Assembly (NCBI GenBank): GCA_035495615.1
Contig: DATJFP010000097.1
Span: forward strand, 4,495-68,494
Direction: 5' to 3'
DNA length: 64,000 bases
From: Verrucomicrobiia bacterium
GTDB taxonomy: Bacteria; Omnitrophota; Omnitrophia; Omnitrophales; Aquincolibacteriaceae
This document shows, piece by piece, positions 20,749 to 53,696 of the stretch. Made by a program: the position numbers and the translations under genes. The notes under the pieces were generated by a model that was not told where the DNA came from, searched no databases, and was given only the letters and a program-made list of their open reading frames with translations. Position 1 is the first letter of the stretch. Every line of letters starts with the position of its first letter.

Positions 20749-20755
20749 GGTCGTC

Positions 20756-22339: not shown

Positions 22340-22367
22340 CCCCCGTTCAAACCGAAAGGAGCACGAC

Positions 22368-26448: not shown

Positions 26449-26762
26449 TCAAAAAAGCGACGCCGAGGCCCGGTTATTTTTCAGGCCTTGCTTATCTAAT
26501 TCCCGGCCGCCCCCCCAGAGAAAAAGAAGTGAATTTATTTTCCGGAAAGCCGTCCTTTTAGAGGTTGGCAATGACTAGGCCCCGTGCTTTGGCAGGTTAT
26601 AAGACGCAGGAAGGCCGGGCGTAAACTCTTTGTAAATGACTGCGTATGCGGCTTTTGGGAAATTTTAAGGGCCAAAAATTCATTGCAATTTAAAGGAGCA
26701 ATGATCAGAATAGCGCTTCTATGAACACACTCTTCATCCCCCCCTCGCCTCGGAGGTTTTCC

Positions 26763-32374: not shown

Positions 32375-32377
32375 TGG

Positions 32378-36164: not shown

Positions 36165-36330
36165 GAAGTCGGGTTTTAGCCGGGTGGAATCCAGGAACCC
36201 GGCTGCCCCGCTTGCCGGGACAAAATTTACTACGACATTTTTCGGAACTTACTGAATTTTAATCTTTTAAGCGTTCGAGCCGATAATATTGTTTCCTGAA
36301 CCGGCCTTTTGGCCGTCGGAAAGGAAGGAC

Positions 36331-37062
36331 ATGAACGCGCAAAATCGTGACCCCAAAGTCACGCTGGCCGTCTATACCCTCAATGAAATTGACGGGATGC
36401 GCGCGGTCATGCCCAAAGTCCGCAAAGAGTGGTGCGACGAAATCATCGTGATCGACGGCGGGTCCACGGACGGGACGGTCGAGTACGCCAGGGAGCAGGG
36501 CTATGCCGTTTACCGGCAGAAAGAGCCGCGGTGGGGCGGCGCGCACCGGGAGGCTTACAGCCGGGCCGCGGGCGACATCGTGATCGATTTTTCCCCGGAT
36601 GGGAATTCCGTGCCGGAACTCATCCCGCAGCTCGTGGCCAAGATCAAAGAGGGATACGACATGGTCATTGCGTCGCGTTATACCGGAGGCGCCAAAAGCG
36701 ACGACGACACCGCGGTGACGGGCTTCGGCAACAGTCTTTTTACATTTCTGGTGAACTTGCTTTTCGGCTGCCGGTATACGGATTCGCTGGTCATTTACCG
36801 CGCCTTCACCCGCCCGTTTCTCGAAAAAGCGGGGGTCGTCAACTGCAGCCTGCCGCAATGCGTGACCGTCCTGACCTGCATCCGGGCGGCGAAAATCAAG
36901 GCCAGGACCGCGGACGTGCCCGGGGACGAGCCTCCCCGCATCGGAGGCCACCCCAAGATGAACCCCTTGATCGACGGGCTGCGCGTGCTGGCCGTGATTT
37001 TTAAGGAATTTTTTATTCGCGATTTTAAAAAAAGCTGCGTTTCCCAGAACATTCAAGCGTGA
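36331..37062 (+). CDS. GT2 polyprenyl-phosphate sugar transferase (DPM1/ArnC/GtrB-like), paralog a
   Basis: VTLAVYTLNEIDGM…IIVIDGGSTDGT…DIVIDFSPDGNSVPE…GYDMVIASRY — the classic GT2 DxD-type layout. The ATG at 36331 is preceded by aaggaagg. Confidence 0.7.
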   Translation: MNAQNRDPKVTLAVYTLNEIDGMRAVMPKVRKEWCDEIIVIDGGSTDGTVEYAREQGYAVYRQKEPRWGGAHREAYSRAAGDIVIDFSPDGNSVPELIPQLVAKIKEGYDMVIASRYTGGAKSDDDTAVTGFGNSLFTFLVNLLFGCRYTDSLVIYRAFTRPFLEKAGVVNCSLPQCVTVLTCIRAAKIKARTADVPGDEPPRIGGHPKMNPLIDGLRVLAVIFKEFFIRDFKKSCVSQNIQA

Positions 37063-37144
37063 GGGTCGCTTTTGTGAGTTTTGGCGGGTACACTAATAGG
37101 GACGCGTCATCGCTTAACCGGTTATCCACCTCCTCGAGGGTTTC

Positions 37145-38137
37145 ATGATCATCAGCAGGACCCCCTTCAGGATTTCTTTCTTCGGCGGCGGCAGCGACTA
37201 TCCGGCCTGGTACTCCAAGTACGGCGGCAAGGTCATTGGCACGACCATCGACAAGTACTGTTATATCAGCTGCCGTTATCTCCCTCCGTTTTTTACCTAT
37301 AAACACCGGATCGTGTATTCCAACATGGAATACGTGAACGACCTTTCCGAGATTAAGCATCCGGCCGTCAAAGGAATCCTGGAAACCCTCAAGGTCGACC
37401 GCGGCATGGAAATCCATCATGACGGCGACCTGCCGGCGCGTTCCGGGCTGGGTTCGAGTTCGTCTTTTACCGTGGGCCTGCTGCATGCCCTTCACGCGCT
37501 GCATGGCAAATTTATTTCCAAACGCGATCTCGCCAACGAGGCCGTGCACATCGAGCAGGAAGTGCTCAAAGAAAACGTGGGCTCGCAGGACCAGATCCTC
37601 GCGGCTTACGGAGGCTTCAACATGATCGAGTTCCACCAGGGCGGCACGTACGATGTCCAGCCCGTGATCCTGCCCAAAGAACGCCTCACGGAATTCCAGC
37701 AGAACCTGATGCTCTGCTTCACAGGCATAACACGCATCGCCTCGACCATTGCCAAGGCGCACATCGACAACCTGGAAAAAAGGAAGCGCGAAATCCAGAT
37801 GATGCAGCAGATGACCCACGAGGCCATCAGCATCCTGCAAAGCTCCAGCCAGATCGACGAATTCGGCAAGCTTCTCCACGAATACTGGAACTACAAAAAA
37901 AGCCTCTCGGACAAAGTGACGACTCCCGAGGTGGACGAAATTTACACCGCCGCGCTCGAGGCCGGAGCCCTGGGCGGCAAGCTGCTCGGCGCGGGAGGCG
38001 GCGGATTCATGCTGTTTTTCGCCAAGCCGGAAGCGCAGCAAAAGATCCGGGAAAGGCTCAAAAAACTCGTCCATGTGGGCTTCCGTTTCGAATTTTCCGG
38101 AAGCAAAATCGTGATTTACGAACCCTACAACTTCTAG
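37145..38137 (+). CDS. GHMP sugar kinase, HddA-like (D-glycero-D-manno-heptose 7-phosphate kinase-like)
   Basis: MIISRTPFRISFFGGGSDYPAWY N-terminus and the PxRSGLGSSSS phosphate-binding loop. 330 aa. Confidence 0.6.
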   Translation: MIISRTPFRISFFGGGSDYPAWYSKYGGKVIGTTIDKYCYISCRYLPPFFTYKHRIVYSNMEYVNDLSEIKHPAVKGILETLKVDRGMEIHHDGDLPARSGLGSSSSFTVGLLHALHALHGKFISKRDLANEAVHIEQEVLKENVGSQDQILAAYGGFNMIEFHQGGTYDVQPVILPKERLTEFQQNLMLCFTGITRIASTIAKAHIDNLEKRKREIQMMQQMTHEAISILQSSSQIDEFGKLLHEYWNYKKSLSDKVTTPEVDEIYTAALEAGALGGKLLGAGGGGFMLFFAKPEAQQKIRERLKKLVHVGFRFEFSGSKIVIYEPYNF

Positions 38138-38139
38138 AC

Positions 38140-39099
38140 ATGAATAAAGAAAAAGCCAAACAGATTTACCACGATGTTTACCTGGTCCGCCGCTGCGAAG
38201 AAAAAATCCGCGACGAATACGCCTCGGACGCGATGAAAACGCCCGTGCATCTGCACGTGGGCGCCGAAGCCATCTGCGCGGGCGTCCTGGCCGCGCTTCC
38301 CAAAGGCCTCAAGGTTTTCGGGACTTACCGCAATCACGGGCTCTACCTGCCGCTCACGCAGGACCCGAAATCGTTTTTCGCGGAGCTGTACGGCAAGGCG
38401 ACAGGCTGCGCCCAGGGCAAGGCCGGTTCCATGCATCTCACCGCGCCCGAGCACGGGCTTTTTCTCACGTCCGCGGTCGTGGCCACGACGATTCCGGTGG
38501 CCGTCGGCGCCGCTCTCGCGCATCAGTACCGCAAAGAAAAAAACGTAGTGGCCGTTTTCTTCGGCGACGGCGCCGTGGAAGAAGGTGCGTTCTGGGAAAG
38601 TCTGAATTTTGCCTGCCTGAAACAACTTCGCGTCTTCTTTGTCTGCGAGGACAACGACCTGGCCATCCACACGCCGACCGCGCATCGCCAGGGCTTCAAG
38701 TCCATTCCCGAAGCGGCCGCGGGCTTCCGCTGCCACATGGCCACCGCGGACGGATGGGATCCGGAAACAGTTTACGCCGCGGCTTCCGGACTTCTTCAGA
38801 GAATGGAAGCCGAACCCAAGCCCTGCTTGCTGCATTTCAAATATTTCCGTTATCTCGAGCACGTAGGCGTGGGCGAGGATTTCAAATTCGGCTATCGCCC
38901 CAAGCCGGACGAGCCCGCGCTGCAAAAGTATGATCCTCTGAAAGCTGCCGAGCGCATGGCCGCCAATCACGGCCTTTCGGATTCCGACATCCAGAAGATC
39001 AACCAGGAAGTGGACGCACTTATCGAGGAGAGCGTGGCCAAGGCCAAGACCGACCCCTTTCCCGACGAACAGGAATTCGGACGCGGAGTCATGAGCTGA
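38140..39099 (+). CDS. thiamine-diphosphate-dependent dehydrogenase E1 alpha-like subunit
   Basis: A GDGAVEEGAFWESLNFA TPP-binding motif (GDG…N) and VGAEA…YRNHG regions resemble the PDH/acetoin-DH E1 alpha family. Confidence 0.7.
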   Translation: MNKEKAKQIYHDVYLVRRCEEKIRDEYASDAMKTPVHLHVGAEAICAGVLAALPKGLKVFGTYRNHGLYLPLTQDPKSFFAELYGKATGCAQGKAGSMHLTAPEHGLFLTSAVVATTIPVAVGAALAHQYRKEKNVVAVFFGDGAVEEGAFWESLNFACLKQLRVFFVCEDNDLAIHTPTAHRQGFKSIPEAAAGFRCHMATADGWDPETVYAAASGLLQRMEAEPKPCLLHFKYFRYLEHVGVGEDFKFGYRPKPDEPALQKYDPLKAAERMAANHGLSDSDIQKINQEVDALIEESVAKAKTDPFPDEQEFGRGVMS

Positions 39100-40289
39100 T
39101 GAAAGCCTCCCAGCCGGTTGAAAAATTGAACTGGCCGCTCATGGCAGACAATATTTTGCCCGAAGACCGGCAGGCCGTGATCGAGTTCCTGAAGCACAAC
39201 GACCGGCTCACGCAGTGGAAAGAAGTGCGCGCGTTCGAAAAGGAATGGTCCGAGTGGATCGGCGTGAAGCACAGCGTGTTCGTCAATTCCGGCGCGTCCG
39301 CGAACCTGATCACGCTGGCCGCGCTGAAAGAAATCGCCGGGCCGGGCGAAGTCATCGTGCCGACGCTGACCTGGGTGTCGGACATCGCGTCGGTGCTGCA
39401 GAACGGTTTCACGCCGGTATTCGTGGACATCAACCCGCGGCATCTCGGCATGGCCGAAGACGAGGTCGCCAAAAAGATTACGCCGAAGACCAAGGCGGTT
39501 TTCCTCACGCATATCCTCGGCTACAACGCGCTGACGGACGGACTGATGAAGACCCTGAAAGAAAAGAATATCCCGCTCATTGAAGACGGCTGCGAGTCGC
39601 ACGGCGCGCGCTTCAAGGGCAAGAGGATCGGCTCGTTCGGCTGGGCCTCCAACTTTTCCTTTTATTACGCGCATCACCTCAGCACCGTGGAAGGCGGCAT
39701 GGTGTGCACGAACGACGACGAACTGTACCAGATGATGCGCATGTTCCGATCGCACGGTCTGGTGCGCGAGATGGACGACGAAAGCCTCAAGAAGCGCTAT
39801 CACGAAAAGTATCCGGACCTCGACACGCAGTTTATTTTTGCATTCCCGGCCTACAACGTGCGCAGCACGGAGATCAACGCGGTATTCGGGCGCAACCAGC
39901 TGAAGCGGCTGCAGGACGAGATCGACGAGCGCAATGAAAACCTCAAAGTGTTTCTGGGCGGGCTCGATCCGGCAAAGTACCGCACGGATTTCGAATTGGA
40001 GGGCGTGAGCAATTACGCGTTAACGCTGGTGCTCCAGAAAAATTTCACGGACAGGGCGGAGAAGGTCACGAAGATGCTGGTCGAAGCCAACGTCGAATAC
40101 CGGCGCGGCACTTCCGGCGGCGGCAACCAGCTCCGCCAGCCGTACCTGAAAAGACTTTTCGGGGACGCGTACAAAAACTATCCCGAAGTCGAGCACGTGC
40201 ACTTTTACGCGTATTACATCGGAAATTATCCCGGCCTGGACAAGGGCTTGATCAAAAAACTCTGCGCCATGCTCAACTCGATCGATTGA
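39099..40289 (+). CDS. DegT/DnrJ/EryC1/StrS-family PLP-dependent sugar aminotransferase/dehydratase
   Basis: VNSGASANLI, GDEVIVP-like and FSFYYAHHLSTVEGG regions are typical of the DegT family. Its start shares a nucleotide with the E1 alpha stop (TGATG). Confidence 0.7.
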   Translation: MKASQPVEKLNWPLMADNILPEDRQAVIEFLKHNDRLTQWKEVRAFEKEWSEWIGVKHSVFVNSGASANLITLAALKEIAGPGEVIVPTLTWVSDIASVLQNGFTPVFVDINPRHLGMAEDEVAKKITPKTKAVFLTHILGYNALTDGLMKTLKEKNIPLIEDGCESHGARFKGKRIGSFGWASNFSFYYAHHLSTVEGGMVCTNDDELYQMMRMFRSHGLVREMDDESLKKRYHEKYPDLDTQFIFAFPAYNVRSTEINAVFGRNQLKRLQDEIDERNENLKVFLGGLDPAKYRTDFELEGVSNYALTLVLQKNFTDRAEKVTKMLVEANVEYRRGTSGGGNQLRQPYLKRLFGDAYKNYPEVEHVHFYAYYIGNYPGLDKGLIKKLCAMLNSID

Positions 40290-40293
40290 GGCC

Positions 40294-41334
40294 ATGAAAA
40301 AACACATCACTTACCGCGACGCGATCAACGAAGCCTTGATGGACGAAATGACGGCCGACGACCGCGTGTTCGTCTTCGGCCTGGATGTGCCCGACCACAA
40401 GCGCATCTTCGGCAGTACCGCGAACCTCGTCGAAAAATTCGGGCCGGAGCGCTGCTTTGCCACGCCGCTTTCCGAAGACGGCATGACGGGCGTTGCGCTT
40501 GGCGCGGCCCTCAGCGGGCTCAGGCCCGTGCACGTTCATATCCGCGTGGACTTCATGCTGCTTGCCATGAACCAGATCGCGAACATGATTTCCTGCGCGC
40601 GCTACATGACCGGCGGCAAGGTCAAGGTGCCGCTTGTCATCCGCGCCGTGATCGGCCGCGGGTGGGGCCAGGGCGCGCAGCACAGCAAGACGCTGCAGAG
40701 CATTTTCGCGCATATCCCCGGACTCAAAGTCGTGATGCCCACGAACCCGCAGGACGCGTACAGCCTTCTCCGGACTTCGATCCAGGACGAGGACCCGGTC
40801 ATTTTTCTCGAGCACCGCTGGCTCTACGACGCGTTCGGCGACGTGGACAAGGAATTCAAGATCCCGATCGGCAAGGCGCTGGTCAAGCGTGACGGCACGG
40901 ACATCACGGTCGTGACGACGTCCTGGATGATGGTCGAGGCCCTGAAGGCGCGCGAGATCCTGATGCGCCGCAACGTGTCCGTCGAAATTGTGGACGTGCG
41001 CACGATTGCGCCCGCGGACATGGACACCATCGCCGCGTCCGCGGCCAAGACCGGCCGCTGCATCGTGGCCGACTACGACTGGGTGCCCTGCGGTTTCAGC
41101 GCCGAAGTCGCGGCGGAAGTCTCGAAGCGCTGCTTCGGAAAATTGAAGCTGCCCGTCGAAAGGATCGGTTTTGCACCCACGCCCTGCCCGACGACACGTC
41201 CGCTCGAAAATCTTTTTTATCCCTCCGCGATCACCCTCATCAGAACCATCGAAAAAATGATGGGCCTTTCGGAAACCGATCTCTCCGGAGAAAAGTTTTA
41301 TTCCTGGGAAGAGCGGTTCAAAGGGCCTTTCTGA
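40294..41334 (+). CDS. E1 beta-like subunit (transketolase-like pyrimidine-binding + C-terminal domain)
   Basis: ITYRDAINEALMDEM…VFVFGLDV…FGPERCFATPLSEDGMTGVALGAALSGLRPV is typical of 2-oxoacid dehydrogenase E1 beta. Confidence 0.7.
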   Translation: MKKHITYRDAINEALMDEMTADDRVFVFGLDVPDHKRIFGSTANLVEKFGPERCFATPLSEDGMTGVALGAALSGLRPVHVHIRVDFMLLAMNQIANMISCARYMTGGKVKVPLVIRAVIGRGWGQGAQHSKTLQSIFAHIPGLKVVMPTNPQDAYSLLRTSIQDEDPVIFLEHRWLYDAFGDVDKEFKIPIGKALVKRDGTDITVVTTSWMMVEALKAREILMRRNVSVEIVDVRTIAPADMDTIAASAAKTGRCIVADYDWVPCGFSAEVAAEVSKRCFGKLKLPVERIGFAPTPCPTTRPLENLFYPSAITLIRTIEKMMGLSETDLSGEKFYSWEERFKGPF

Positions 41335-41343
41335 CGGAGCCGC

Positions 41344-42327
41344 ATGTTTAAGGGCAGAAAAATTCTCGTCACCGGAGGCACGGGGCTGATCGGCCGGCCG
41401 CTGGTGGAAATGCTGATCCAGGAAGGCGCGCACGTGAGGATCGCATCGCTCGACGATCCGTCGCGCGCGCATCCCAAGGCCGAATTCGTCCAGGCGAACC
41501 TCATGCATTTCGAGAATTGCGCCAAGGCCTGCCAGGGTATGGACGACGTGTTTCATCTGGCCGGCGTCAAGGGCTCGCCCGCCATGACCGCGAAGAAACC
41601 CGCGAGCTTTTTCGTGCCCATGGTGACTTTCAACACCAACATGATGGAGGCCGCGCGCCAGGCCGGCGTGAAGCGCTTCCTTTATACCAGCTCCATCGGC
41701 GTGTATGCTCCGGCCGAAGTTTTTCACGAAGATGATGTCTGGAAAACTTTTCCTTCGCCGAACGACCGCTTCGCGGGCTGGGCCAAGCGCATGGGCGAAC
41801 TGCAGGCCGAGGCTTACCAGATCGAATACGGCTGGAAAGACATCGCGATCGTGCGGCCGGCAAACGTGTATGGCCCCTTCGACAATTTCGACCCGCAGAA
41901 CGCCATGGTGATCCCGTCGCTCATCCGCCGCGCCATGGACGGCGAGAATCCATTGACGGTGTGGGGCGACGGCTCCGCGGTGCGCGATTTCATCCACGCG
42001 CGCGACGTGGCCCGCGGCATGATGCTCGCGCTCGAAAAAGGAGGCGGCCAGCCGCTCAACCTCGGAAGCGGCCTGGGCGTCAGCGTGAAGCAGATCGTGG
42101 ACATCATCGCGGCCAACATGCCCGTGAAGCCCAAAGTCGTGTGGGACACGTCCAAGCCTTCCGGCGACAAGAAACGGCTGATGGACATGACGCGGGCGAA
42201 AGCTCTCGGCTTCGAGCCGAAAGTCTCCATCGAAGAAGGCATCCGCGAAGTCATGGACTGGTATTCGAAAAACCGCGAAGAAGTAAACAAGCGCTACAAT
42301 GTTTTCACCGAGAAGAAATTTGCGTAA
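41344..42327 (+). CDS. NAD-dependent epimerase/dehydratase (GDP-fucose-synthase-like SDR)
   Basis: ILVTGGTGLIG Rossmann motif and the YTSS…Y…K region. 327 aa. Confidence 0.7.
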   Translation: MFKGRKILVTGGTGLIGRPLVEMLIQEGAHVRIASLDDPSRAHPKAEFVQANLMHFENCAKACQGMDDVFHLAGVKGSPAMTAKKPASFFVPMVTFNTNMMEAARQAGVKRFLYTSSIGVYAPAEVFHEDDVWKTFPSPNDRFAGWAKRMGELQAEAYQIEYGWKDIAIVRPANVYGPFDNFDPQNAMVIPSLIRRAMDGENPLTVWGDGSAVRDFIHARDVARGMMLALEKGGGQPLNLGSGLGVSVKQIVDIIAANMPVKPKVVWDTSKPSGDKKRLMDMTRAKALGFEPKVSIEEGIREVMDWYSKNREEVNKRYNVFTEKKFA

Positions 42328-42354
42328 GCGGCTCTGCCGCCGGCGGGTACTCGC

Positions 42355-43407
42355 ATGACGACTTCACTTGATTTGATTGCCTCGGATCCGGGCTTCAAGA
42401 CCACGAAGCTTTTCCGCGAGCTCCAAAAGAATCCCTTCGGCTTCATCGACGTCGGCGCGCTGGGCGGCATCCATCCCATCGTCGATCCCATCGCGGGCCT
42501 TACGCATGCCCTGTGCTTCGAGCCGGACGAAAAAGACTGCGAGGCCCTGAGGAACAAATACGCGGAAGCTTCTTCGTTTGCCCGCGTAACCGTGGAGCAG
42601 ACGGCGTTGGGCGCGCCCGGCAAGGAAAAGGAAAATCTCTACATTTCGAAAGTCGCGACCAACACGTCGCTTCTCAAGCCTAACCCGCACTTCATCAGCC
42701 GTTACCAGGCCAAGAAATTTGAAGTGGACCGCGTGCTGCCCATCCAGACGCGCACGCTGGACAGTGTCCTGGCCGGCGGGAAAGACCTCGGAGGCAGAAT
42801 GGGCGAAATGTTGAAGCTGGACACGCAGGGCAGCGAATACCGCATCCTGAAAGGCGCGGAGAAGCTTCTCGACAAGACTTGCCTCGCGGTGTGGTGCGAG
42901 GTGGAGTTTTTCGAAGTCTACGAAGGCCAGGAAACTTTTTCGGACATCGACAGGCTCCTGCGTGAGCATGGATTTTTGATTTACGGGATCTACCCGCATT
43001 ACCGTTCCACCAAATCGCTGGACCGCAGCCAGTACACGACCGAGGAGCGGCTGATGTGGGCCGACGCGGTCTTCATCAAGGACCCGCTCGACTCGCGCAA
43101 CCAAGGGCGCAAGTTTTCGGAGCGCGACCTCCAGAGTCTTGTCCTCATCGCGATGCTCACGCGGTTTTATGATTTCGCCCTCGAGCTCGTGCGCGGCCCT
43201 TATCCGGAGCCCGCGGACCGCAAGGCGCTGGAAAACCTGATCCTCACGCTCGCCAAAGTGGACAATTACGGCCTGAGGGACGACATCGAGCGTTTGAACA
43301 AGGCCTGCTCGAAAAATCCGGACCGGACGAACGTGCTGGTCGGGCTCTTTGTCTCGCGGCACCAGTCGAACAACACGGTGGACCATCTCCTGGACCGCGT
43401 CCGGTAG
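42355..43407 (+). CDS. FkbM-family SAM-dependent methyltransferase
   Basis: FIDVGALGG (compare the FkbM IDVGAN.G motif). 350 aa, sitting inside the sugar cluster. Confidence 0.5.
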   Translation: MTTSLDLIASDPGFKTTKLFRELQKNPFGFIDVGALGGIHPIVDPIAGLTHALCFEPDEKDCEALRNKYAEASSFARVTVEQTALGAPGKEKENLYISKVATNTSLLKPNPHFISRYQAKKFEVDRVLPIQTRTLDSVLAGGKDLGGRMGEMLKLDTQGSEYRILKGAEKLLDKTCLAVWCEVEFFEVYEGQETFSDIDRLLREHGFLIYGIYPHYRSTKSLDRSQYTTEERLMWADAVFIKDPLDSRNQGRKFSERDLQSLVLIAMLTRFYDFALELVRGPYPEPADRKALENLILTLAKVDNYGLRDDIERLNKACSKNPDRTNVLVGLFVSRHQSNNTVDHLLDRVR

Positions 43408-43459
43408 TTCCGCCCCTGCTCCGGCCCAGCCCCTCGGGCGGAGAAATTGAAGGAATCAT

Positions 43460-45208
43460 ATGAAACTGGGAAAAGTCTTCGTCGCCGGCGGCACCGGGCT
43501 CGTGGGAAAAAACATGGTGAAGCGCCTGGAAGCGATGGGCGTGGATTACCAGGCGAGCTACTACCAGTCCCAGCCTCTTTTTTGCCGCAGCAAATACCGC
43601 CGCGTGGATTTTCAGAAATTCGACGAGACCATGGAAGCCCTGAAAGGCGTTTCGGAACTCATCATCTGCGCGGCCGTCACGCACGGCGTGAAGAGGATGA
43701 AGGAAAATCCCGGCGCCGGCATCCTGCCCAACCTCAAAATCACCAGCCACCTGCTCGAAGCCGCGCGGCGCCAGAAAGTTTCACGCGTTGTTTTCCTGGG
43801 CAGCGGCACAGTTTACCAGGAAGCCGAGCATCCGATACGCGAGGACGACCTGAATCTCAATCTGCCGCCGTACGGCCTGTACCTGGGCATCGGCGGGCTG
43901 TCACGCTATCTGGAACAGCTTTGCTTTTTTTATGCGAAGCAGTTCGGCATGCAGATCGGCATTTTCCGGCTGTCGAATGTCTACGGCCCGCACGATCATT
44001 TCGGGGAAGACCGTTCCCACGTGCTGCCGGCGCTTATCCGCCGCGCGCTTAAAAAAGAAAATCCCTTCAAGGTGTGGGGCCGCGCCTCGGTGGTCCGCGA
44101 TTTCATTTACGTCGAGGACGTGGTCGAGGCCATCCTGCGGCTGCTCGACAAGCATTGCCGCCCGGATCCCATCAATTTCAGCTACGGCAAAGGCGTCACG
44201 ATCGGAGAAGCCGTAAAAACCATCCTGCAGGTCTGCGGCCATTCCGTGGCGCCGCAGTATGACGAAAGCGCGCCGACCGCCATTCCTTACCGCGTGCTGG
44301 ACTGCACCAAATTCGAGCAGCTGCTCGGGCCGCTGCCGCGCACCTCGCTCGAAGAGGGCGTGCGCAGGACCGTGGCCTGGGCCGTGGAAGAAGACATTTT
44401 CAAGACGCGCGCCGCGAAAACGGCCCCGAAGACCCGCTACCTCCTGACCGGCGTATCGAGCGGGCTTGGGCGCTACCTGCATGAGAGGCTGGGCGGCGAG
44501 GGGCTCACGCGTGAAAATGCTCCGGAAGTTCTGGAAAGCGCGCGCGCCAAGGGCTGCGACGTCGTCGTGCATGCGGCATTCAGCGCGCCGAAGACCGGGC
44601 CTTCTTCGATGCTCGCGGCCTGCCTCGAGGACAACATCGGGCTCACGCAGAAGCTCGCCGAAGTGCCGCACCGCAAGATGATTTATATTTCCTCGATCGA
44701 CGTTTATCCCAAGACGCCAGGCCCGCACAGCGAGGATGAGGACATCCACTTCCGCGACATCGCGGGATTTTACGGCATCATGAAGCTGACCTGCGAGGCT
44801 CTCGTCCAGCAGAAATGCCCGAACCATCTTATCCTGCGCTGCTCCGCGTTTTTGGGGCGGTATTCCCGCAAGGCCAATCTCAAGGTGATCGCCGAAGACC
44901 CGAAGCCCGAACTGAAGCTCCAGGCGGGCTCGCGTTTCAATTACATCCTCCATGAAGACGTGGCGGCCTTTATCGAATACGCGGTCGAGCACGACCTGCG
45001 CGGCATCTACAACGTCGCATCCAGCGGCGCGGTCACGCTTTCCGAAATCGCGGAGTGGGTTAAGAAAAAGCCCGTGTATGGCGATTACCTTTATGATTCC
45101 GGGGACATCTCCAACCGTAAAATTGCGGCGGTTTTCCCCGCGCTGAAAAAAACATCGCGCCAGGTCGCGGAACATTTCCTGGCGAGCGAATATTCTTATT
45201 CTTTTTAG
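43460..45208 (+). CDS. two-domain SDR: N-terminal Fcl/GDP-sugar epimerase-reductase-like + C-terminal second NAD(P)-binding reductase-like domain
   Basis: First Rossmann motif VFVAGGTGLVG with Y…K and a WG..S.VRDFIYVED block. A second Rossmann motif LLTGVSSGLGRYL opens the C-terminal ~260 aa. Confidence 0.55.
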   Translation: MKLGKVFVAGGTGLVGKNMVKRLEAMGVDYQASYYQSQPLFCRSKYRRVDFQKFDETMEALKGVSELIICAAVTHGVKRMKENPGAGILPNLKITSHLLEAARRQKVSRVVFLGSGTVYQEAEHPIREDDLNLNLPPYGLYLGIGGLSRYLEQLCFFYAKQFGMQIGIFRLSNVYGPHDHFGEDRSHVLPALIRRALKKENPFKVWGRASVVRDFIYVEDVVEAILRLLDKHCRPDPINFSYGKGVTIGEAVKTILQVCGHSVAPQYDESAPTAIPYRVLDCTKFEQLLGPLPRTSLEEGVRRTVAWAVEEDIFKTRAAKTAPKTRYLLTGVSSGLGRYLHERLGGEGLTRENAPEVLESARAKGCDVVVHAAFSAPKTGPSSMLAACLEDNIGLTQKLAEVPHRKMIYISSIDVYPKTPGPHSEDEDIHFRDIAGFYGIMKLTCEALVQQKCPNHLILRCSAFLGRYSRKANLKVIAEDPKPELKLQAGSRFNYILHEDVAAFIEYAVEHDLRGIYNVASSGAVTLSEIAEWVKKKPVYGDYLYDSGDISNRKIAAVFPALKKTSRQVAEHFLASEYSYSF

Positions 45209-45213
45209 GAGCC

Positions 45214-46218
45214 ATGATGGACGAGAAGAAAATCAAAAAAGTGCTGATCACCGGCATCGCGGGTTCGGGAGGCAGTTATCTGGCGGAATACATCGTGAAC
45301 CATCATCCCGGCGCCCAGGTGCACGGCATGGTGCGCTGGCACAGCGCCGCGGGGAAGGAAAACCTCGCGAACGTTTTGGACCGCGTCCAGCTCCACGAAT
45401 GCGATCTCAACGACATGGTTTCCGTCCTCGAAGTGATGAAAAAGGTAAAGCCCGATGCCATTTTTCATCTGGCCTCGAACGCGAATGTGCGCGCGTCTTT
45501 CATTTATCCCCATGCGGTGCTGAGCAACAACATCCTCGGCACCTGCAATCTTTTCGAAGCCGTGCGGCTTACCGGGATCGACCCTTTGATCCAGCATTGC
45601 TCCACGTCCGAAGTCTACGGCCAGGTGGACCCCAAGAACGTGCCGATCAAGGAAGACTGCCCGATCCAGCCGTCCAGCCCTTACGCGGTGTCGAAAGTCG
45701 CGCAGGATTTTCTGGGGCTCACGTATTTCCGCAGTTACAACATGAAAATTATCCGCACGCGCATGTTCGCCTACATTAATCCGCGGCGCGCGGACCTTTT
45801 CGCCACGTCGTTCGCGAGGCAGGTGGCGCGCATCGAGGCCGGACTCCAGAAAGAGCTCAAGCACGGGAACCTCGATTCGATCCGCACCATGATCGACGTC
45901 CGCGACGCCATGGAGGCGTACTGGGTGGCGCTCGTGCACTGCAAGGCGGGCGAGACCTACAACATCGGAGGCAAGACCACGATTTCCGTAGGCGATTTTC
46001 TGGAGCTGCTCAAAAAGCACGCGAAGACCAAGATCCCGACGGTTCAGGACCCGGCACTGCTGCGGCCCGCGGACGTGACGCTCCAGATTCCGGACACGTC
46101 AAAGTTCAAGGCCGCCACGAAGTGGGAACCGAAGATCAGCTTCGAAGAAAGCGTGGTCAGCCTGCTCGAAGAATGGCGGCGGCGCGTGAAGCGCGAAGCC
46201 GCGGAGGCGAAATCATGA
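45214..46218 (+). CDS. GDP-mannose/heptose 4,6-dehydratase-like SDR (GMD family)
   Basis: KVLITGIAGSGGSYLAEYIV…HGMVR resembles the GMD N-terminus (ITGITGQDGSYLAE…HG). SPYAVSK catalytic region. Confidence 0.55.
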   Translation: MMDEKKIKKVLITGIAGSGGSYLAEYIVNHHPGAQVHGMVRWHSAAGKENLANVLDRVQLHECDLNDMVSVLEVMKKVKPDAIFHLASNANVRASFIYPHAVLSNNILGTCNLFEAVRLTGIDPLIQHCSTSEVYGQVDPKNVPIKEDCPIQPSSPYAVSKVAQDFLGLTYFRSYNMKIIRTRMFAYINPRRADLFATSFARQVARIEAGLQKELKHGNLDSIRTMIDVRDAMEAYWVALVHCKAGETYNIGGKTTISVGDFLELLKKHAKTKIPTVQDPALLRPADVTLQIPDTSKFKAATKWEPKISFEESVVSLLEEWRRRVKREAAEAKS

Positions 46219-46910
46219 GCGGCCGGCCGACGTTCACGCTTTTCATGCCGACGATGAACGAAGTCGAGGGCATGAAGGCCATGATGCCGCGCGTGAATAA
46301 AGCCTGGGTGGACGAGATTCTGGTCGTGGACGGCGGCTCCAGGGACGGCACGCTGGAATACGCCGAGGCGGAAGGCTACCGCATCGCGCATCAGACCAAG
46401 ACCAAAGGCATCATGGGTGCTTACATGGAAGGCCTGCCGCACGTCAAAACTGACGTGGTGATCGCGTTCAGCCCGGACGGCAATTCGCTTCCCGAGCGCA
46501 TCCCCGCGCTTGTCGAAAAAATGAAAGAAGGCTACGACATGGTGATCGTGTCCCGGTATCTCGACGGCGCTAAAAGCGAGGACGATGATCCGGTGACGGC
46601 GTTCGGCAACTGGATGTTCACGACCATGATCAATGTCGCGTTCGGCGGTCATTATACGGATTCGCTCGTCATGTTCCGCGCGTGGGTCAAAGATTCCCTG
46701 GGTTCGATTTCGCGCGTGGAATTCCCGCGCGCCGGATTCGAGCCGCTCATGTCCATCCGCTGCGCCAAGGAAAAAAGAAAAGTCACGGAAATCCCGGGCG
46801 ATGAGCCCAAGAGAATCGGCAGCGCGCGGAAAATGGACCCGCTGAAAAACGGCATGGACATCCTTCGCCTCATCGCGGCCGAAAAAATGGCGCGGGGACG
46901 GCGTCCATGA
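46216..46910 (+). CDS. GT2 polyprenyl-phosphate sugar transferase, paralog b
   Basis: FTLFMPTMNEVEGM…ILVVDGGSRDGT…AFSPDGNSLPE…GYDMVIVSRY. The ATG overlaps the upstream stop (ATGA). Confidence 0.7.
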
Positions 46911-47590
46911 AAGTCACCCTCCTCCTGCCGACTCTGAACGAGGTCGAAGGCATGAAGGCCGTGCTGCCCCGCATCCGCCGTGAATGGGTGGACGAGATCT
47001 TCGTCGTGGACGGCGGTTCCACCGACGGCACGATGGAATACGCGAAGGAACAGGGATGCCGCGTATTGCGTCAGACACGCAAAGGCGTGCCCGGCGCATA
47101 CCGCGACGCGCTGGAACACATCGACAGCGATATCATCATCACCTTCAGCCCTGACGGCAATTCGGTCCCGGAAAAAATCCCGGAGCTGATCGCCAAGATG
47201 AAAGAGGGCTACGACATGGTCGTTGTCTCGCGCTACATGCCGGGAGCGAAAAGCGAGGACGACGATCCGGTGACGGCCTTCGGCAACTGGATGTTCACAA
47301 AAATGATCAACATCCTGTTCGGCGGAAATTCCACGGATTCGCTGGTCATCTTCCGCGCCTGGAAAGCGGACCTGGTCAAAAAGGCGATCGAAGTGCCGCC
47401 GCGCGCGGGCTACGAATTGTACACGACGATCTACTGCGCCAAGCACAAACTGAAGACCGCGGACATCCCCGGCGACGAGCCCAAACGCATTGGCGGCGAG
47501 CGCAAGATGAACCCGCTGAAGAACGGCCTCGCGGTCCTGGGGCTCATCCTTTCCGAAAAGTTCTGCCCTCACCGGGGGAAACATGAGTAA
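46907..47590 (+). CDS. GT2 polyprenyl-phosphate sugar transferase, paralog c
   Basis: VTLLLPTLNEVEGM…IFVVDGGSTDGT…TFSPDGNSVPE…GYDMVVVSRY. Overlaps the upstream stop. Confidence 0.7.
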   Translation: MKVTLLLPTLNEVEGMKAVLPRIRREWVDEIFVVDGGSTDGTMEYAKEQGCRVLRQTRKGVPGAYRDALEHIDSDIIITFSPDGNSVPEKIPELIAKMKEGYDMVVVSRYMPGAKSEDDDPVTAFGNWMFTKMINILFGGNSTDSLVIFRAWKADLVKKAIEVPPRAGYELYTTIYCAKHKLKTADIPGDEPKRIGGERKMNPLKNGLAVLGLILSEKFCPHRGKHE

Positions 47591-48554
47591 GAAGAAGCTG
47601 CTGCTTTGCGGCGCCACGGGATTCATCGGCCGCAACATCCTGGAATCGCTTATCCGCAGTGACGCTTACGAGATTACCGCGGTCCATCATAAAAAGAATC
47701 CCCCTGACACGCTTGCGAAGGAAAAGAAGATAAAATGGGTCCAGGCCGATCTCACGCAGGCCGGCGACGTCGCCCGCGTCATCCCGGGCCAGGAAATCCT
47801 GGTGCAGGCCGCGGCCACGACTTCCGGCGCGAGGGACATCGTGACGAAGCCCTTTTATCACGTCACGGACAACGCGGTCATGAATTCGCTGCTTTTCCGC
47901 AGCGCGTACGAGAACAAGCTGAAGCACGTGGTGTTTTTCAGCTGCACGACCATGTACATGCCGCAGGACTCGCCGGTGAAGGAAGAGGATTTCAAAGGCG
48001 AGATGATCGACAAGTATTTCGGCGTGGGCTGGACGAAAGTCTACATCGAGAAGATGTGCGAGTTTTACGCGCGCCTGGGGCCGGCGAAATACATCGCGAT
48101 CCGGCATTCGAATATTTACGGCCCGCACGACAAATACGATCTCGAGCGCTCGCATGTGTTCGGCGCGACGGTCGCTAAGGTCATGGCCGCGAAAGACAGA
48201 GTGGAAGTGTGGGGCGACGGCTCGGACGAGCGGGACCTGCTCCACGTGGATGATCTCGTGGATTTCGTGGAGCTCGCGCTGGAAAAGCAGGACAAGCCCT
48301 TCGAGCTTTTGAATCTGGGCTCGGGCGTTTCGGTTTCGGTGAAGCAGCTTGTGGAAGCCATCATCCGCGCGTCCGGAAAGAAGCTGGACGTTCATTACGA
48401 TTTGTCGAAGCCGAGCATCGGCTTCAAGCTCAAGATCAATCTCGACAGGACGCGGAAAAATTTTGGCTGGAAGGCTCGCTTGGGGCTCGACGAGGGCATC
48501 CGGAAAACGCTTGAATGGTACCGTGCGAATTATAAGCCTGAGCCGGCGGTTTGA
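47583..48554 (+). CDS. NAD-dependent epimerase/dehydratase
   Basis: LLLCGATGFIGRNI Rossmann motif and a Y…K segment. 323 aa. Confidence 0.7.
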   Translation: MSKKKLLLCGATGFIGRNILESLIRSDAYEITAVHHKKNPPDTLAKEKKIKWVQADLTQAGDVARVIPGQEILVQAAATTSGARDIVTKPFYHVTDNAVMNSLLFRSAYENKLKHVVFFSCTTMYMPQDSPVKEEDFKGEMIDKYFGVGWTKVYIEKMCEFYARLGPAKYIAIRHSNIYGPHDKYDLERSHVFGATVAKVMAAKDRVEVWGDGSDERDLLHVDDLVDFVELALEKQDKPFELLNLGSGVSVSVKQLVEAIIRASGKKLDVHYDLSKPSIGFKLKINLDRTRKNFGWKARLGLDEGIRKTLEWYRANYKPEPAV

Positions 48555-49258
48555 TGGAAGCGATTATCCTCGCCGGTGGGCTCGGTACGCGCCTCGGCGC
48601 GTTGACGCGGGACGTTCCCAAGCCCATGGTGCCGGTGAAGGGCCGGCCGTTCCTGGAATACCTGATGGATTACTGGCGCGGGCAGGGCATCACAGGCTTT
48701 GTGCTGTCGGTGGGTTATAAGTCCGAAGTCGTGCAGTCCCATTTCGGCGCAAGTTACAAAGGCGCGCCCGTGCGGTACAGCGTGGAAAAAGAGCCTCTCG
48801 GTACTGGCGGTGGTTTGCTTCAGGCCCTGCGCATTTGTTCGGGCAAAGGGCCGGTGCTGGCGCTGAACGGCGATACTTTTTTTGCCGCCGGATTAAAGCC
48901 GCTGGCGGATTTGTACGGCAAAGCCAAGGCGGATCTGGTCATGGCGCTTTTTGAAGTGGCATCGCGTGACCGTTACGAAGGCGTCGCGCTCGAAGCCTCG
49001 GGCCGCATCAAAAAATTTATCCGGCGCGAAGACAAACAGCTTTGCCAGTTCGCCAACGGCGGCGTTTATCTGATCAATCCAGCGCTGGCGCAAGGCGCGC
49101 CGGAAGGGAAGGCGTCGCTGGAAAACGAATTGCTGCCCGCGTGGCTTTCGCAGAAAAAAGCCGTTTACGGCGCGGCGGCGCATGGAACCTTTATTGACAT
49201 CGGAACGCCCGAGGATTACGCTCGGGCCGAACAAGTGCTGGCCCGGGGACAGGTCTAA
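48551..49258 (+). CDS. sugar-1-phosphate nucleotidyltransferase, HddC-like (heptose-1-P guanylyltransferase-like)
   Basis: MEAIILAGGLGTRL…VPKPMVPV.G.PFLEYL. At 235 aa, size and N-terminus match HddC/GMP-type small nucleotidyltransferases. Confidence 0.65.
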   Translation: MMEAIILAGGLGTRLGALTRDVPKPMVPVKGRPFLEYLMDYWRGQGITGFVLSVGYKSEVVQSHFGASYKGAPVRYSVEKEPLGTGGGLLQALRICSGKGPVLALNGDTFFAAGLKPLADLYGKAKADLVMALFEVASRDRYEGVALEASGRIKKFIRREDKQLCQFANGGVYLINPALAQGAPEGKASLENELLPAWLSQKKAVYGAAAHGTFIDIGTPEDYARAEQVLARGQV

Positions 49259-49269
49259 GACCTGTCCCC
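49245..49269. repeat. perfect 25-bp palindrome GGGGACAGGTCTAAGACCTGTCCCC (copy 1 of a repeat family)
   Basis: The upstream gene's TAA stop sits in the loop and the next gene's ATG starts 1 nt after the 3' arm. Confidence 0.8.
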
Positions 49270-50229
49270 ATGAATAGGAAAGGAGTTCCCTTGAGCGAAC
49301 GTATTTTGGTTACCGGAGGCGCGGGCTATCTCGGGTCCATCATGGTCCCGGAACTTTTGAACGCGGGCTACCAGGTCACGGTCCTGGACAATTTCATGTA
49401 CCATCAGAACAGCCTGAACCATGTGTGCGCGAACCCGAAATTCGAGGCCGTGCGCGGAGACACGCGCGACGCAAAGGTGATGAAAGCTCTGCTCGCTAAA
49501 GCCGACGTCATCATTCCCCTTGCCGCGCTTGTCGGCGCGCCGCTCTGCGACCGCGATCCCATCGCGGCCACGACCACCAACCGCGATGCCGTCGTGAGCA
49601 TCGTCAAGGCGCTCAGCAAGGAACAGAAAATCCTGATGCCCGTCACCAACAGCGGCTACGGCGTGGGCGAAAAAAACAAGGAATGCACGGAAGACTCGCC
49701 GCTCAATCCCATTTCGCTGTACGGACGTGACAAGGTCGAAGCGGAACAGGCGATTCTCAGCCGGCCGAATTCGATCAGCTTCCGTCTGGCCACGGTTTTC
49801 GGCATGAGCCCGCGCATGAGGATCGACCTTCTGGTCAACGATTTCACTTACCGCGCGGTCTATGACCGGTTTATCGTGCTTTTCGAGGCGCATTTCAAGC
49901 GCAACTACGTGCACGTCCGCGACGTGGCGCGCGTTTTCCTGCACGGCCTCAAGAATTTCGACAAGCTCAAGGGGCAGGCGTATAACGTGGGGCTTTCGGA
50001 CGCCAATTTGTCCAAGCTCGAGCTCGCGCAGCGCATCAAGAAGTTCATCCCTTCGTTTACGATCATGGAAGCGCCTGTCGGCGAAGACCCGGACAAGCGT
50101 GATTACATCGTGTCCAACGCGAAGATCGAAAAGACCGGCTTCAAGCCGCAGCATTCGCTGGACGACGGCATCCGTGAATTGATCAAGGGCTACACCATGA
50201 TCAAGAACACGATTTACACCAACATTTAA
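49270..50229 (+). CDS. NAD-dependent epimerase/dehydratase
   Basis: ILVTGGAGYLGS Rossmann motif. 319 aa. Confidence 0.65.
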   Translation: MNRKGVPLSERILVTGGAGYLGSIMVPELLNAGYQVTVLDNFMYHQNSLNHVCANPKFEAVRGDTRDAKVMKALLAKADVIIPLAALVGAPLCDRDPIAATTTNRDAVVSIVKALSKEQKILMPVTNSGYGVGEKNKECTEDSPLNPISLYGRDKVEAEQAILSRPNSISFRLATVFGMSPRMRIDLLVNDFTYRAVYDRFIVLFEAHFKRNYVHVRDVARVFLHGLKNFDKLKGQAYNVGLSDANLSKLELAQRIKKFIPSFTIMEAPVGEDPDKRDYIVSNAKIEKTGFKPQHSLDDGIRELIKGYTMIKNTIYTNI

Positions 50230-50235
50230 CCGTTA

Positions 50236-50328
50236 GCATGGACGGGGACAGGCCTTGTGCGAATACTGAGGCGTCAAGCTTCAGAGAGCCTGCCGAAATC
50301 ATTGGGATTTCGGCGCAGACCTGTCCCC
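50236..50328. repeat. repeat family copy 2: GCATGGACGGGGACAGGCC … (65 nt insert with inner hairpin CGAAATCattggGATTTCG) … AGACCTGTCCCC
   Basis: Carries the same terminal arms as copy 1 but split by an insert. It lies in the intergenic space after the epimerase. Confidence 0.7.
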
Positions 50329-50338
50329 AAGGCTTTGA

Positions 50339-52517: not shown

Positions 52518-52527
52518 GAGCTATGGG

Positions 52528-52568
52528 CATGGACGGGGACAGGTCTTTAGACCTGTCTCCATGGGCGT
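52528..52568. repeat. repeat family copy 3: GCATGGACGGGGACAGGTCTTTAGACCTGTCTCCATGGGCG
   Basis: An imperfect palindrome with the same GGGGACAGGTCT core. It lies after lhgO. Confidence 0.7.
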
Positions 52569-52633
52569 GAATGCATGAGGCCTGTTGCGAGCGCGCGGGC
52601 CTTTGCAGGCAAGCGAGCGCTTAATATCGCGGA

Positions 52634-53539: not shown

Positions 53540-53696
53540 GTTCTCCTAGGGGACAAGGGACGACACTCTAGCACCGGGTATGCTGAAATGCCAGCGGAAT
53601 TTAGGCGCTCAAAGAGATTCCTCCAAAAGCCGATGGATAAGGGGGAATAAATCCGGCCGCGGCGCGTCTGTTATAGTTAAGGAAAGAAAGGCACTT

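Follow-up and report, generated by a model that had tools for sequence, protein, structure and literature searches.

A candidate operon coupling GDP-heptose tailoring to a thiamine-dependent enzyme in a Verrucomicrobiia bacterium

A 64-kb stretch of DNA from a Verrucomicrobiia bacterium (contig DATJFP010000097.1; 64,000 nucleotides, here called the window) carries, at positions 36331-52517 of its plus strand, a run of genes for a GHMP-family sugar kinase, a sugar nucleotidyltransferase, a two-subunit thiamine-diphosphate (ThDP) enzyme, a DegT-family protein, several short-chain dehydrogenase/reductases (SDRs) and three family 2 glycosyltransferases (GT2s). We lean towards reading this run as one operon that builds modified GDP-heptoses and passes them to lipid carriers. 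Islands for GDP-heptose are in themselves ordinary; what appears to be new is that across many phyla they are tied, in a conserved and so far uncharacterised way, to a thiamine carboligase, a link by which the operon and its relatives would join GDP-heptose tailoring with thiamine-dependent sugar branching. GDP-heptose tailoring has been worked out almost wholly in Campylobacter, Yersinia and Burkholderia pathogens, and thiamine-dependent sugar branching is known from Yersinia-type lipopolysaccharide (the YerE class) and from actinomycete antibiotics (the E1 and transketolase classes).

The kinase possesses both GHMP domains, and its translation contains MIISRTPFRISFFGGGSDYPAWY, the stretch PARSGLGSSSS, which conforms to the PxxGLGSSS motif, and GAGGGGF. 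Among the NCBIfam families HddA ranks first (E = 7e-46), ahead of fucokinase (2e-31) by 15 orders of magnitude and of mevalonate kinase (5e-23) and galactokinase (1e-16), and the best solved relatives are three heptose-7-phosphate kinases (PDB 3k85, 4usk and 4n3o, ~130 bits each). For the nucleotidyltransferase the leading family is HddC (2e-49), followed by mannose-1-phosphate guanylyltransferase (5e-45), with uridylyl- and thymidylyltransferases at 1e-31 or weaker (RmlA, 76 bits); its best solved relatives, at ~118 bits, are PDB 6jq8/5xhw, a Yersinia "6-deoxy-D-mannoheptose pathway protein" (HddC). The open reading frame (ORF) list starts this gene at a TTG at 48551, and the ATG at 48554 gives MEAIILAGGLGTRL...VPKPMVPV. 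An earlier note, made from the DNA letters, had taken these two genes for the signature pair of GDP-heptose synthesis; the peptides it quoted are present in both translations, and the families that would have spoken otherwise (galactokinase and mevalonate kinase for the one, thymidylyl- and uridylyltransferases for the other) fall behind HddA and far behind HddC, respectively. On these profiles the two proteins are HddA-like and HddC-like, a likeness that does not establish equivalog membership.

The neighbourhood of the kinase is conserved. Relatives of the kinase were found in at least 560 stretches of a species-representative genome collection, from which 80 loci spanning ~11 phyla were kept, and 86 related loci with kinase orthologues at 58-71% identity were re-annotated by tblastn. 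All neighbour counts come from this re-annotation, earlier ORF calling having given antisense artefacts in high-GC loci, and counts out of 42 refer to the full loci, those with at least 7 kb on each side of the kinase. A core of kinase, thiamine enzyme, DegT protein, nucleotidyltransferase and SDR is syntenic in loci of ~11 phyla, and its carriers include nitrifiers, methanotrophs, anammox bacteria, Omnitrophota and Verrucomicrobia. Cultured bacteria with the canonical cassette include Nitrosospira sp. Nl5 (L034), Azonexus hydrophilus ZS02 (L021), Methylotuvimicrobium sp. KM1 (L057) and Methylomicrobium sp. wino1 (L048). A homologue of the HddC-like transferase is found in 38 of the 42 full loci and one of the last SDR of the run, at ~67% identity, in 36. 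GmhA lies beside the kinase orthologue in 23 and GmhB in 8, and for a Nitrosospira locus (L034) the identity of GmhA is backed by NCBIfam. This conserved context adds weight to the GDP-heptose reading beyond the sequence scores. GmhA, GmhB, a B12-binding radical S-adenosylmethionine (SAM) enzyme and an L-2-hydroxyglutarate oxidase accompany the core set in many loci.

The last SDR aligns with PDB 6vo6/6vo8 at 406 bits, without a gap over 311 residues, so that the similarity extends over its full length. We take these entries to be Campylobacter jejuni Cj1427, the GDP-heptose C4-dehydrogenase, an assumption in keeping with the deposited name and with a chain of 313 residues plus a tag, and placement of the last SDR in the Cj1427 type is well supported by this alignment. 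The earlier note had listed the protein without this identity. In Cj1427 the tightly bound NAD+ is regenerated by reducing alpha-ketoglutarate to L-2-hydroxyglutarate (PMC10680097, PMC7949155), a ping-pong mechanism that yields one L-2-hydroxyglutarate per turnover (PMC10680097). Two genes downstream of the last SDR is a gene, also missing from the earlier note, whose product scores above the 299-bit NCBIfam cut-off for L-2-hydroxyglutarate oxidase. Since a Cj1427-type enzyme would release one L-2-hydroxyglutarate each time it turns over, a neighbouring oxidase that regenerates alpha-ketoglutarate is its natural partner, and the oxidase probably recycles the by-product in this way. A homologue (~50% identity) occurs in 14 of the 42 full loci, in most of them as the next gene behind the Cj1427-like one, and no paper joining an L-2-hydroxyglutarate oxidase with a Cj1427-type enzyme was found in the full-text collection searched. 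Between the two genes, and sharing 11 bases with that of the oxidase, lies one for a 330-residue Rieske protein with a CPHQ...CPWH motif; this protein could serve either the oxidase or the dehydratase described below as an electron partner, and no homologue of it was found in the 86 related loci.

The GMD-like protein of the run has as its top solved match the C. jejuni GDP-heptose 4,6-dehydratase 7us5 (198 bits), one of the GDP-heptose tailoring functions described for Campylobacter (PMC10680097, PMC7949155). With the family ranks, the GmhA and GmhB genes of related loci and the 6vo6 and 7us5 matches, the core GDP-heptose route of the earlier note stands, and the operon most likely makes GDP-activated seven-carbon sugars.

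Several results weigh against this reading. The kinase scores 157 bits with HddA against an equivalog cut-off of 600 and the transferase 168 bits with HddC against one of 300; both lie so far under these cut-offs that sequence does not establish their substrates. The transferase matches mannose-1-phosphate guanylyltransferase almost equally (ManC, 154 bits), the GMD-like protein matches the Rmd reductase 2pk3 (192 bits) nearly as well as the heptose dehydratase, and tblastn found neither GmhA nor GmhB homologues in the 64-kb window, as the earlier note had also remarked. The equation of 6vo6 with Cj1427 is an assumption that rests on chain length and name, and literature searches for 6VO6, 6VO8 and 7US5 gave nothing relevant. 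Most of these results would suit a hexose pathway, in which GDP-mannose passes through a GMD-type dehydratase and a ColD-type 3-dehydratase, following the logic of colitose synthesis, before being branched to a GDP-linked yersiniose-like sugar, with the kinase and transferase salvaging mannose or another hexose. ColD, the best solved match of the DegT protein, acts on GDP-4-keto-6-deoxymannose, and the GMD-like protein also matches GDP-mannose dehydratases. We nonetheless regard a hexose pathway as very unlikely: the best family and the best structures for the kinase are heptose-7-phosphate kinases, its orthologues stand beside GmhA and GmhB at the frequencies given above, the top solved match of the GMD-like protein is specific for heptose, and the operon holds a 58%-identical homologue of the GDP-heptose C4-dehydrogenase.

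The DegT-family protein had been assigned an amination step by the earlier note, and this part of its proposal falls. The best solved matches are four ColD entries (2gms/3gr9, 161 bits), ahead of the CDP-hexulose 3-dehydrase E1 (129 bits) and perosamine synthase. Its motif FYYAHHLST pairs in the alignment with FYSHHIAT of ColD, which contains His188, and places its first His where aminotransferases have the Schiff-base Lys; at the same position the printed alignment of 3b8x, which we take to be the H188N variant of ColD, shows N for H. This His-His pair is conserved in all 46 cluster homologues, and the Lys-type DegT proteins found in related loci form a separate family. The top NCBIfam model is RfbH (200 bits), and no Cys-rich motif was seen in the aligned region. 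Because His replaces the Schiff-base Lys and ColD is the best match, no amination step is expected; by its active-site signature the protein is a predicted 3-dehydratase, not an aminotransferase, and its membership in the ColD type is well supported. A ColD-like dehydratase is found in 34 of the 42 full loci, the other His-type enzymes being E1/RfbH-like. A precedent for its action on heptoses is the 3-dehydratase of C. jejuni HS:5, which uses pyridoxal phosphate (PLP) together with L-glutamate and, in vitro, strips the 3-hydroxyl from GDP-heptose in its 6-deoxy-4-keto form and in the 4-keto form that Cj1427 yields (PMC10680097).

In five loci of anammox bacteria, other Planctomycetota and Nitrospirae (L032, L035, L073, L076 and L083) a second DegT family of the His type takes the place of the ColD-like gene. 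Its members have Ala-His and a Cys-rich stretch (for example SHGRACKCKSCV) resembling the Fe-S motif of the CDP-hexulose 3-dehydrase E1.

Taken whole, the earlier proposal was a Campylobacter/Yersinia-type GDP-6-deoxy-heptose pathway of dehydratase, epimerase, reductase and O-methylation steps with a DegT amination; on that reading the thiamine genes would play no part in sugar chemistry. The heptose-type matches of kinase, transferase and dehydratase on which it drew are real, DegT is the right Pfam family and an FkbM methyltransferase is present. We now consider it highly improbable, given a DegT protein that lacks the catalytic Lys and carries the ColD signature in every homologue, the separate family formed by the Lys-type proteins, and thiamine genes that lie on either side of the DegT gene, a thiamine enzyme being accompanied by a His-type dehydratase in 39 of 39 loci.

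The thiamine genes, E1-alpha and E1-beta, flank the dehydratase gene both in the window and in the Omnitrophota loci L001, L002 and L054; there E1-beta, SDR1 and the GMD-like gene are 76-78% identical to those of the window, and SDR1 matches the gene that follows E1-beta in Omnitrophota loci at 75-78%. E1-alpha scores 246 bits with the NCBIfam model for pyruvate dehydrogenase (PDH) E1-alpha, under the cut-off of 394, and retains an intact GDG...N cofactor/Mg motif when aligned to human PDH E1-alpha. E1-beta is full-length and reaches 298 bits with the PDH E1-beta subfamily (cut-off 321) and 231 bits with PDB 3duf_B. Pfam and NCBIfam scans of the 64-kb window revealed no gene for E2, E3 or a lipoyl protein, and the pair looks like a functional stand-alone E1.

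Across the related loci no other feature is coupled to the dehydratase as tightly as the thiamine enzyme. It is present in 39 of the 42 full loci, usually between the kinase and the dehydratase, in three mutually exclusive forms: a split transketolase (23 loci), an E1 alpha/beta pair (8) and a short E1-like pair of ~200 and 178 residues without the C-terminal domain of E1-beta (8). All 39 of these loci have a His-type dehydratase, the dehydratase type in six loci being assigned by eye from the printed motif, and none is found in the three loci that lack a thiamine enzyme, where any DegT protein is of the Lys type. The cluster split transketolases keep the cofactor Glu and the His of THQ in 34 of 34 members. 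Three other positions are changed (human numbering): of the 34 members, H416 has become G in all, D424 has become S in 33 and R474 has become A in 26, residues that we take, from human and yeast transketolase, to bind the substrate phosphate and the acceptor 2-hydroxyl. Their loss argues against a supply of sedoheptulose-7-phosphate and for a shared, non-canonical role tied to the 3-deoxy-4-keto sugar.

Such a supply would be another role for the enzyme: the transketolase forms would make sedoheptulose-7-phosphate, the E1 form would be a component of pyruvate or acetoin dehydrogenase, and the sugars would be unbranched 3-deoxy- or 3,6-dideoxy-heptoses as in C. jejuni HS:5. In its favour, the commonest form in the related loci is annotated as transketolase, sedoheptulose-7-phosphate is the precursor of the pathway, the 231-bit match of E1-beta is to a genuine PDH E1-beta, and unbranched GDP-3,6-dideoxy-heptoses are known to arise from dehydratase, 3-dehydratase and reductase (PMC10680097). 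Yet an E1 alpha/beta pair or a pair of 200 and 178 residues cannot make sedoheptulose-7-phosphate and still fills the transketolase slot to its exclusion, the cluster transketolase no longer has the His and Arg that bind phosphate or the acceptor Asp, the window encodes no E2 or E3, and the presence of a thiamine enzyme tracks the His-type dehydratase exactly and not GmhA. Since three forms of the enzyme stand in for one another and residues that bind phosphate are lost, we set transketolase as precursor supplier aside as the principal explanation and consider a supplier role of the thiamine enzyme unlikely.

Instead, the thiamine enzyme probably attaches a carbon branch to the sugar in its 3-deoxy-4-keto form; this, the least certain step of the scheme, is proposed by analogy with two known systems. 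In the yersiniose A pathway of Yersinia pseudotuberculosis the DdhC/E1 3-dehydrase is followed by the ThDP flavoenzyme YerE, which adds a C2 unit from pyruvate to CDP-3,6-dideoxy-4-keto-glucose, and by the reductase YerF; ErwE, MMAR_2332 and MygE are YerE-like (PMC9306805). As proposed here, a 3-deoxy-4-keto nucleotide sugar made by a dehydrase of the pyridoxamine phosphate (PMP) type accepts a ThDP-bound acyl anion and is then reduced at the ketone, in the setting of Gram-negative envelope glycans. The two differ in that YerE is a single chain of the decarboxylase/acetohydroxyacid synthase class whereas the window enzyme is a two-subunit E1 type, in that Yersinia uses a CDP-hexose and the window probably a GDP-heptose, and in that the window dehydratase is of the ColD type and not an Fe-S E1/E3 pair. 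A heptose-derived erwiniose, with radical-SAM C-methylation leading to 3,6,8-trideoxy-octoses, was also considered as a product and dropped, erwiniose and caryophyllose being explained by YerE-like enzymes, longer 2-oxo acids and CDP-hexose (PMC9306805).

The second system comprises the E1-type alpha-KADH2 enzymes of actinomycetes, which branch the keto-sugars of antibiotics: AviB1/AviB2 (avilamycin), Pau11/Pau12 (paulomycin), the aldgamycin enzymes and KbDH-alpha/beta (kibdelomycin) (PMC4753412, PMC12247030). Like them, the window encodes E1 alpha and beta in two genes without E2 or E3 in a deoxysugar cluster; the alpha-KADH2 enzymes are proposed to add the C2 unit of pyruvate at C3 or C4 of a keto-sugar, as has been shown in vitro for KbDH, which accepts pyruvate and sugar-like ketones (PMC12247030). 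Compared by description, the two-subunit E1 architecture, intact cofactor motif, deoxysugar cluster and missing E2/E3 make membership of the window pair in the alpha-KADH2 sugar-branching clade plausible. The known cases come from Gram-positive actinomycetes, where they belong to secondary-metabolite clusters and have dTDP-type deoxyhexoses as substrates, whereas ours is an envelope-glycan operon of Verrucomicrobia and other Gram-negative phyla in a GDP-heptose context. Split-gene transketolases have likewise been proposed to act in miharamycin and amipurimycin synthesis, and a 2025 review lists 13 putative ketone-accepting split transketolases, all from Streptomycetes and none tested (PMC12247030).

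The following route would combine these activities. Sedoheptulose-7-phosphate would be converted to heptose-7-phosphate by a GmhA encoded elsewhere and phosphorylated at C1 by the HddA-like kinase, and a GmhB, also encoded elsewhere, would remove the C7 phosphate, steps suggested by homology and conserved context. A 4-keto sugar could then arise in either of two ways: through the Cj1427-type dehydrogenase, which would re-oxidise its bound NADH with alpha-ketoglutarate and release L-2-hydroxyglutarate for the oxidase to convert back, or through the DmhA/GMD-like 4,6-dehydratase, which would give a 6-deoxy-4-keto sugar. The ColD-type enzyme carries the active-site signature for removing a 3-hydroxyl, and its product here would be a GDP-3-deoxy- or 3,6-dideoxy-4-keto-heptose. 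E1 alpha/beta would decarboxylate pyruvate or another 2-oxo acid and add the acyl-anion equivalent to the 4-keto carbon, leaving a C-branched tertiary alcohol. The Fcl-like reductases/epimerases and the FkbM methyltransferase would finish the sugar or sugars, the three soluble DPM1-like synthases would load them onto polyprenyl phosphate, and YfhO/PMT-like GT-C membrane proteins would transfer them in the periplasm to an envelope acceptor. The operon would thus resemble in its working the GDP-heptose tailoring of Campylobacter, linked to a module of the yersiniose type that deoxygenates at C3 and then branches, with an antibiotic-type E1 alpha/beta as the branching enzyme.

Some points tell against this scheme. 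Its minimal form needs fewer than the five SDRs (one of them double) that the operon encodes, so several products or other chemistry are possible. No experiment or structure is known to tie any E1-type or transketolase-type enzyme to GDP-heptose, and the co-occurrence counts ignore phylogenetic non-independence.

Also among the closest known systems are the capsular GDP-heptose pathways of C. jejuni, with GmhA/HddA/GmhB/HddC, Cj1427, DdahA/DmhA, the HS:5 C3-dehydratase and Fcl-like C4-reductases (PMC10680097, PMC7949155). Shared with them are a GHMP kinase and a small guanylyltransferase, a Cj1427-type dehydrogenase, a heptose-dehydratase-like SDR, a ColD-type 3-dehydratase, Fcl-like reductases and the GDP carrier. 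The differences are that the window kinase and transferase are distant from the solved proteins, that no cupin-type C3/C5 epimerase was seen in the window, that E1 alpha and beta are embedded beside the dehydratase and an L-2-hydroxyglutarate oxidase is linked, that the locus lacks GmhA and GmhB, and that the products seem bound for polyprenyl-phosphate synthases and GT-C enzymes and not for capsule polymerases.

More tentatively, the set of kinase, thiamine enzyme, His-type 3-dehydratase, guanylyltransferase and Cj1427-like dehydrogenase may be the signature of a widespread pathway, so far uncharacterised, to GDP-linked C-branched 3-deoxy-heptoses of at least nine carbons in the envelopes of environmental Gram-negative bacteria. 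It would contain the first E1-type and split-transketolase branching enzymes outside actinomycete antibiotic clusters, the first to act on GDP-heptose, and the first dedicated by-product-recycling partner of a Cj1427-type ping-pong dehydrogenase. Searches for the cassette (heptose with transketolase, or radical SAM with GHMP) found no prior description in the full-text collection searched, an absence limited to that collection. If the proposal is correct, a new family of branched higher-carbon sugars is common in the envelopes of uncultured, biogeochemically important bacteria, and stand-alone E1-type and transketolase-type ketone carboligases, enzymes sought by biocatalysis researchers, could be obtained from hundreds of genomes. 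The linked oxidase would also give a physiological rationale for the odd dependence of Cj1427 on alpha-ketoglutarate.

The sugars are likely to be passed by way of a lipid carrier to a glycan of the envelope. GT2a, GT2b and GT2c are soluble paralogues with no transmembrane (TM) segment and 49-63% identity (GT2a to GT2b or GT2c, 49-57%), and score best against AglJ, dolichyl-phosphate-hexose, ArnC and PpgS-type polyprenyl-phosphate sugar synthases. The window holds at least six candidate GT-C-like proteins. Four tandem paralogues of 567-578 residues are encoded at 9879-16758 (plus strand), with 44-47% mutual identity and 8-9 TM-like segments each; two of them match PMT_2 weakly, one above and one below the Pfam cut-off. 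Together with the nearby polyprenyl-phosphate sugar synthases these look like a battery of periplasmic glycosyltransferases, and three DPM1-like synthases beside several GT-C-like membrane proteins suggest that transfer is periplasmic. As in the three-component Arn, Gtr and PpgS systems, a short DPM1-like GT2 (with AglJ, ArnC and PpgS matches) is encoded with YfhO/PMT_2-like polytopic proteins; unlike them, the window has three synthase paralogues and, within 64 kb, the six or more GT-C-like candidates, and the donor would be a modified GDP-heptose. In related loci the cassette is accompanied by a GT2 and a PMT_2 protein (L001), by an ArnC-like GT2, a DedA protein and a large membrane protein (L003) or, in Nitrosospira, by a Wzm/Wzt exporter. 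The tandem-paralogue stretch has a strongly negative AT skew (-0.21 to -0.26).

Table 1. Genes of the proposed operon and of its upstream flank (window positions).
Gene product	Position	Strand	Assignment and matches
GT2a	36331-37062	+	Soluble DPM1/AglJ/PpgS-like polyprenyl-phosphate sugar synthase; operon gene 1; Pfam Glycos_transf_2, NCBIfam AglJ/dolichyl-P hexose transferase
HddA-like GHMP sugar kinase	37145-38137	+	Probable D-glycero-D-manno-heptose-7-P 1-kinase; GHMP_kinases_N + GHMP_kinases_C
E1-alpha-type thiamine-diphosphate subunit	38140-39099	+	Pfam E1_dh 169 bits
ColD-type PLP/PMP-dependent 3-dehydratase (predicted), DegT family	39099-40289	+	His replaces catalytic Lys
E1-beta-type thiamine subunit	40294-41334	+	Transket_pyr + Transketolase_C
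SDR1, GDP-L-fucose-synthase-like epimerase/reductase	41344-42327	+	NCBIfam Fcl 154 bits; top PDB matches GDP-L-fucose synthases
FkbM-family methyltransferase	42355-43407	+	Pfam Methyltransf_21, TIGR01444
Two-domain SDR, Fcl-like N-half + RmlD-like C-half	43460-45208	+	Two Epimerase stretches; RmlD_sub_bind residues 353-536; Fcl 147 bits
GMD/DmhA-like GDP-sugar 4,6-dehydratase, or Rmd-type 4-reductase	45214-46218	+	GDP_Man_Dehyd 240 bits
GT2b, DPM1-like polyprenyl-phosphate sugar synthase	46215-46910	+	Pfam/NCBIfam; ATG overlaps stop of GMD-like gene as ATGA
GT2c, DPM1-like polyprenyl-phosphate sugar synthase	46907-47590	+	Pfam/NCBIfam; 63% identity to GT2b
SDR3, Fcl-like epimerase/reductase	47583-48554	+	NCBIfam Fcl 130 bits
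HddC-like sugar-1-phosphate guanylyltransferase	48554-49258	+	NTP_transferase
Cj1427-like SDR (last SDR)	49270-50229	+	58% identity to PDB 6vo6/6vo8
Protein with C-terminal Rieske [2Fe-2S] domain	50339-51331	+	Pfam Rieske, residues 234-291 only
L-2-hydroxyglutarate-oxidase-like FAD enzyme	51321-52517	+	NCBIfam L-2-hydroxyglutarate oxidase 364 bits
YfhO-like polytopic membrane protein	33948-36164	-	Candidate GT-C transferase using polyprenyl-P-sugar; Pfam YfhO 36.5 bits; 10 TM-like segments; divergent from operon
513-aa membrane protein	32378-33919	-	No Pfam/NCBIfam match; at least 4 TM-like segments
Class I SAM methyltransferase	31632-32375	-	Methyltransf_23/11/12/25; gene call from matching metagenome contigs
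709-aa polytopic membrane protein	29495-31624	+	9 TM-like segments; no significant Pfam match

The run was counted as 17 co-directional genes in the ORF listing and the Pfam/NCBIfam scans, 16 of which are itemised in Table 1; gaps between them are at most 109 bases and six junctions overlap. The start of GT2a was taken from the gene call on matching metagenome contigs. The genes named in the earlier note (kinase, transferase, GMD-like protein, three stand-alone SDRs, two-domain SDR, FkbM methyltransferase, DegT protein and two DPM1-like GT2s) all lie on the plus strand where it had placed them; its list passed over E1-alpha and E1-beta inside its own interval, which excluded GT2a and stopped before the Rieske and oxidase genes. 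The two-domain SDR matches GDP-fucose synthase and GDP-mannose 3,5-epimerase in the PDB, SDR3 has an Omnitrophota counterpart at 60-63% identity, and the FkbM methyltransferase has no homologue among the 86 related loci. A promoter and terminator scan of 35900-53700 gave sites no more numerous than in shuffled sequence and is therefore uninformative on the limits of the operon; a tRNA scan found none. The exact kinase sequence is recorded in a Verrucomicrobiae metagenome-assembled genome (MAG) and in two metagenome contigs with identical gene order. An archaeal (Agl) locus, suspected from the AglJ-like GT2 matches and a 7TM sensor, was rejected on the bacterial neighbours (LacI, LhgO, CdaA) and the presence of the kinase sequence in the Verrucomicrobiae MAG.

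Among the related loci, a B12-binding radical-SAM protein of ~508 residues accompanies the kinase in 30 of the 42 full loci, directly upstream of it (L005, L008, L013, L022, L034, L048, L057 and others), and is absent from the window; its best NCBIfam match is HpnJ at 117 bits, far under the cut-off, and in the canonical cassette it might C-methylate or rearrange the heptose. A NUDIX hydrolase is found in 9 of the 42. The Omnitrophota locus closest to the window, L001, has a second thiamine pair downstream (17266-20990), a 542-residue E1_dh/TPP_enzyme_C protein and a Transket_pyr protein, preceded by genes for DJ-1/PfpI and HAD hydrolase proteins.

Elsewhere in the window, a glycogen-metabolism block at 16867-25254 (plus strand) encodes a glycogen phosphorylase (831 residues), a DUF4912 protein, a GH57 branching enzyme and a GH57 + DUF3536 protein. 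A fused MbnB/TglH/ChrH (DUF692) + DUF2063 protein, of a type tied to modification of peptides that are metal-related or resemble ribosomally synthesized and post-translationally modified peptides, is encoded at 27743-29458 (plus strand), with small ORFs (on the matching metagenome contig) and a YceI-like gene (26721-27374) upstream of it. Signalling and envelope genes near the island (5348-6787, 25270-26448, 54473-56329 and 56372-57100) encode a PAS-GGDEF diguanylate cyclase, a CdaA-type diadenylate cyclase, a 7TM-PAS sensor and a PAP2 phosphatase.

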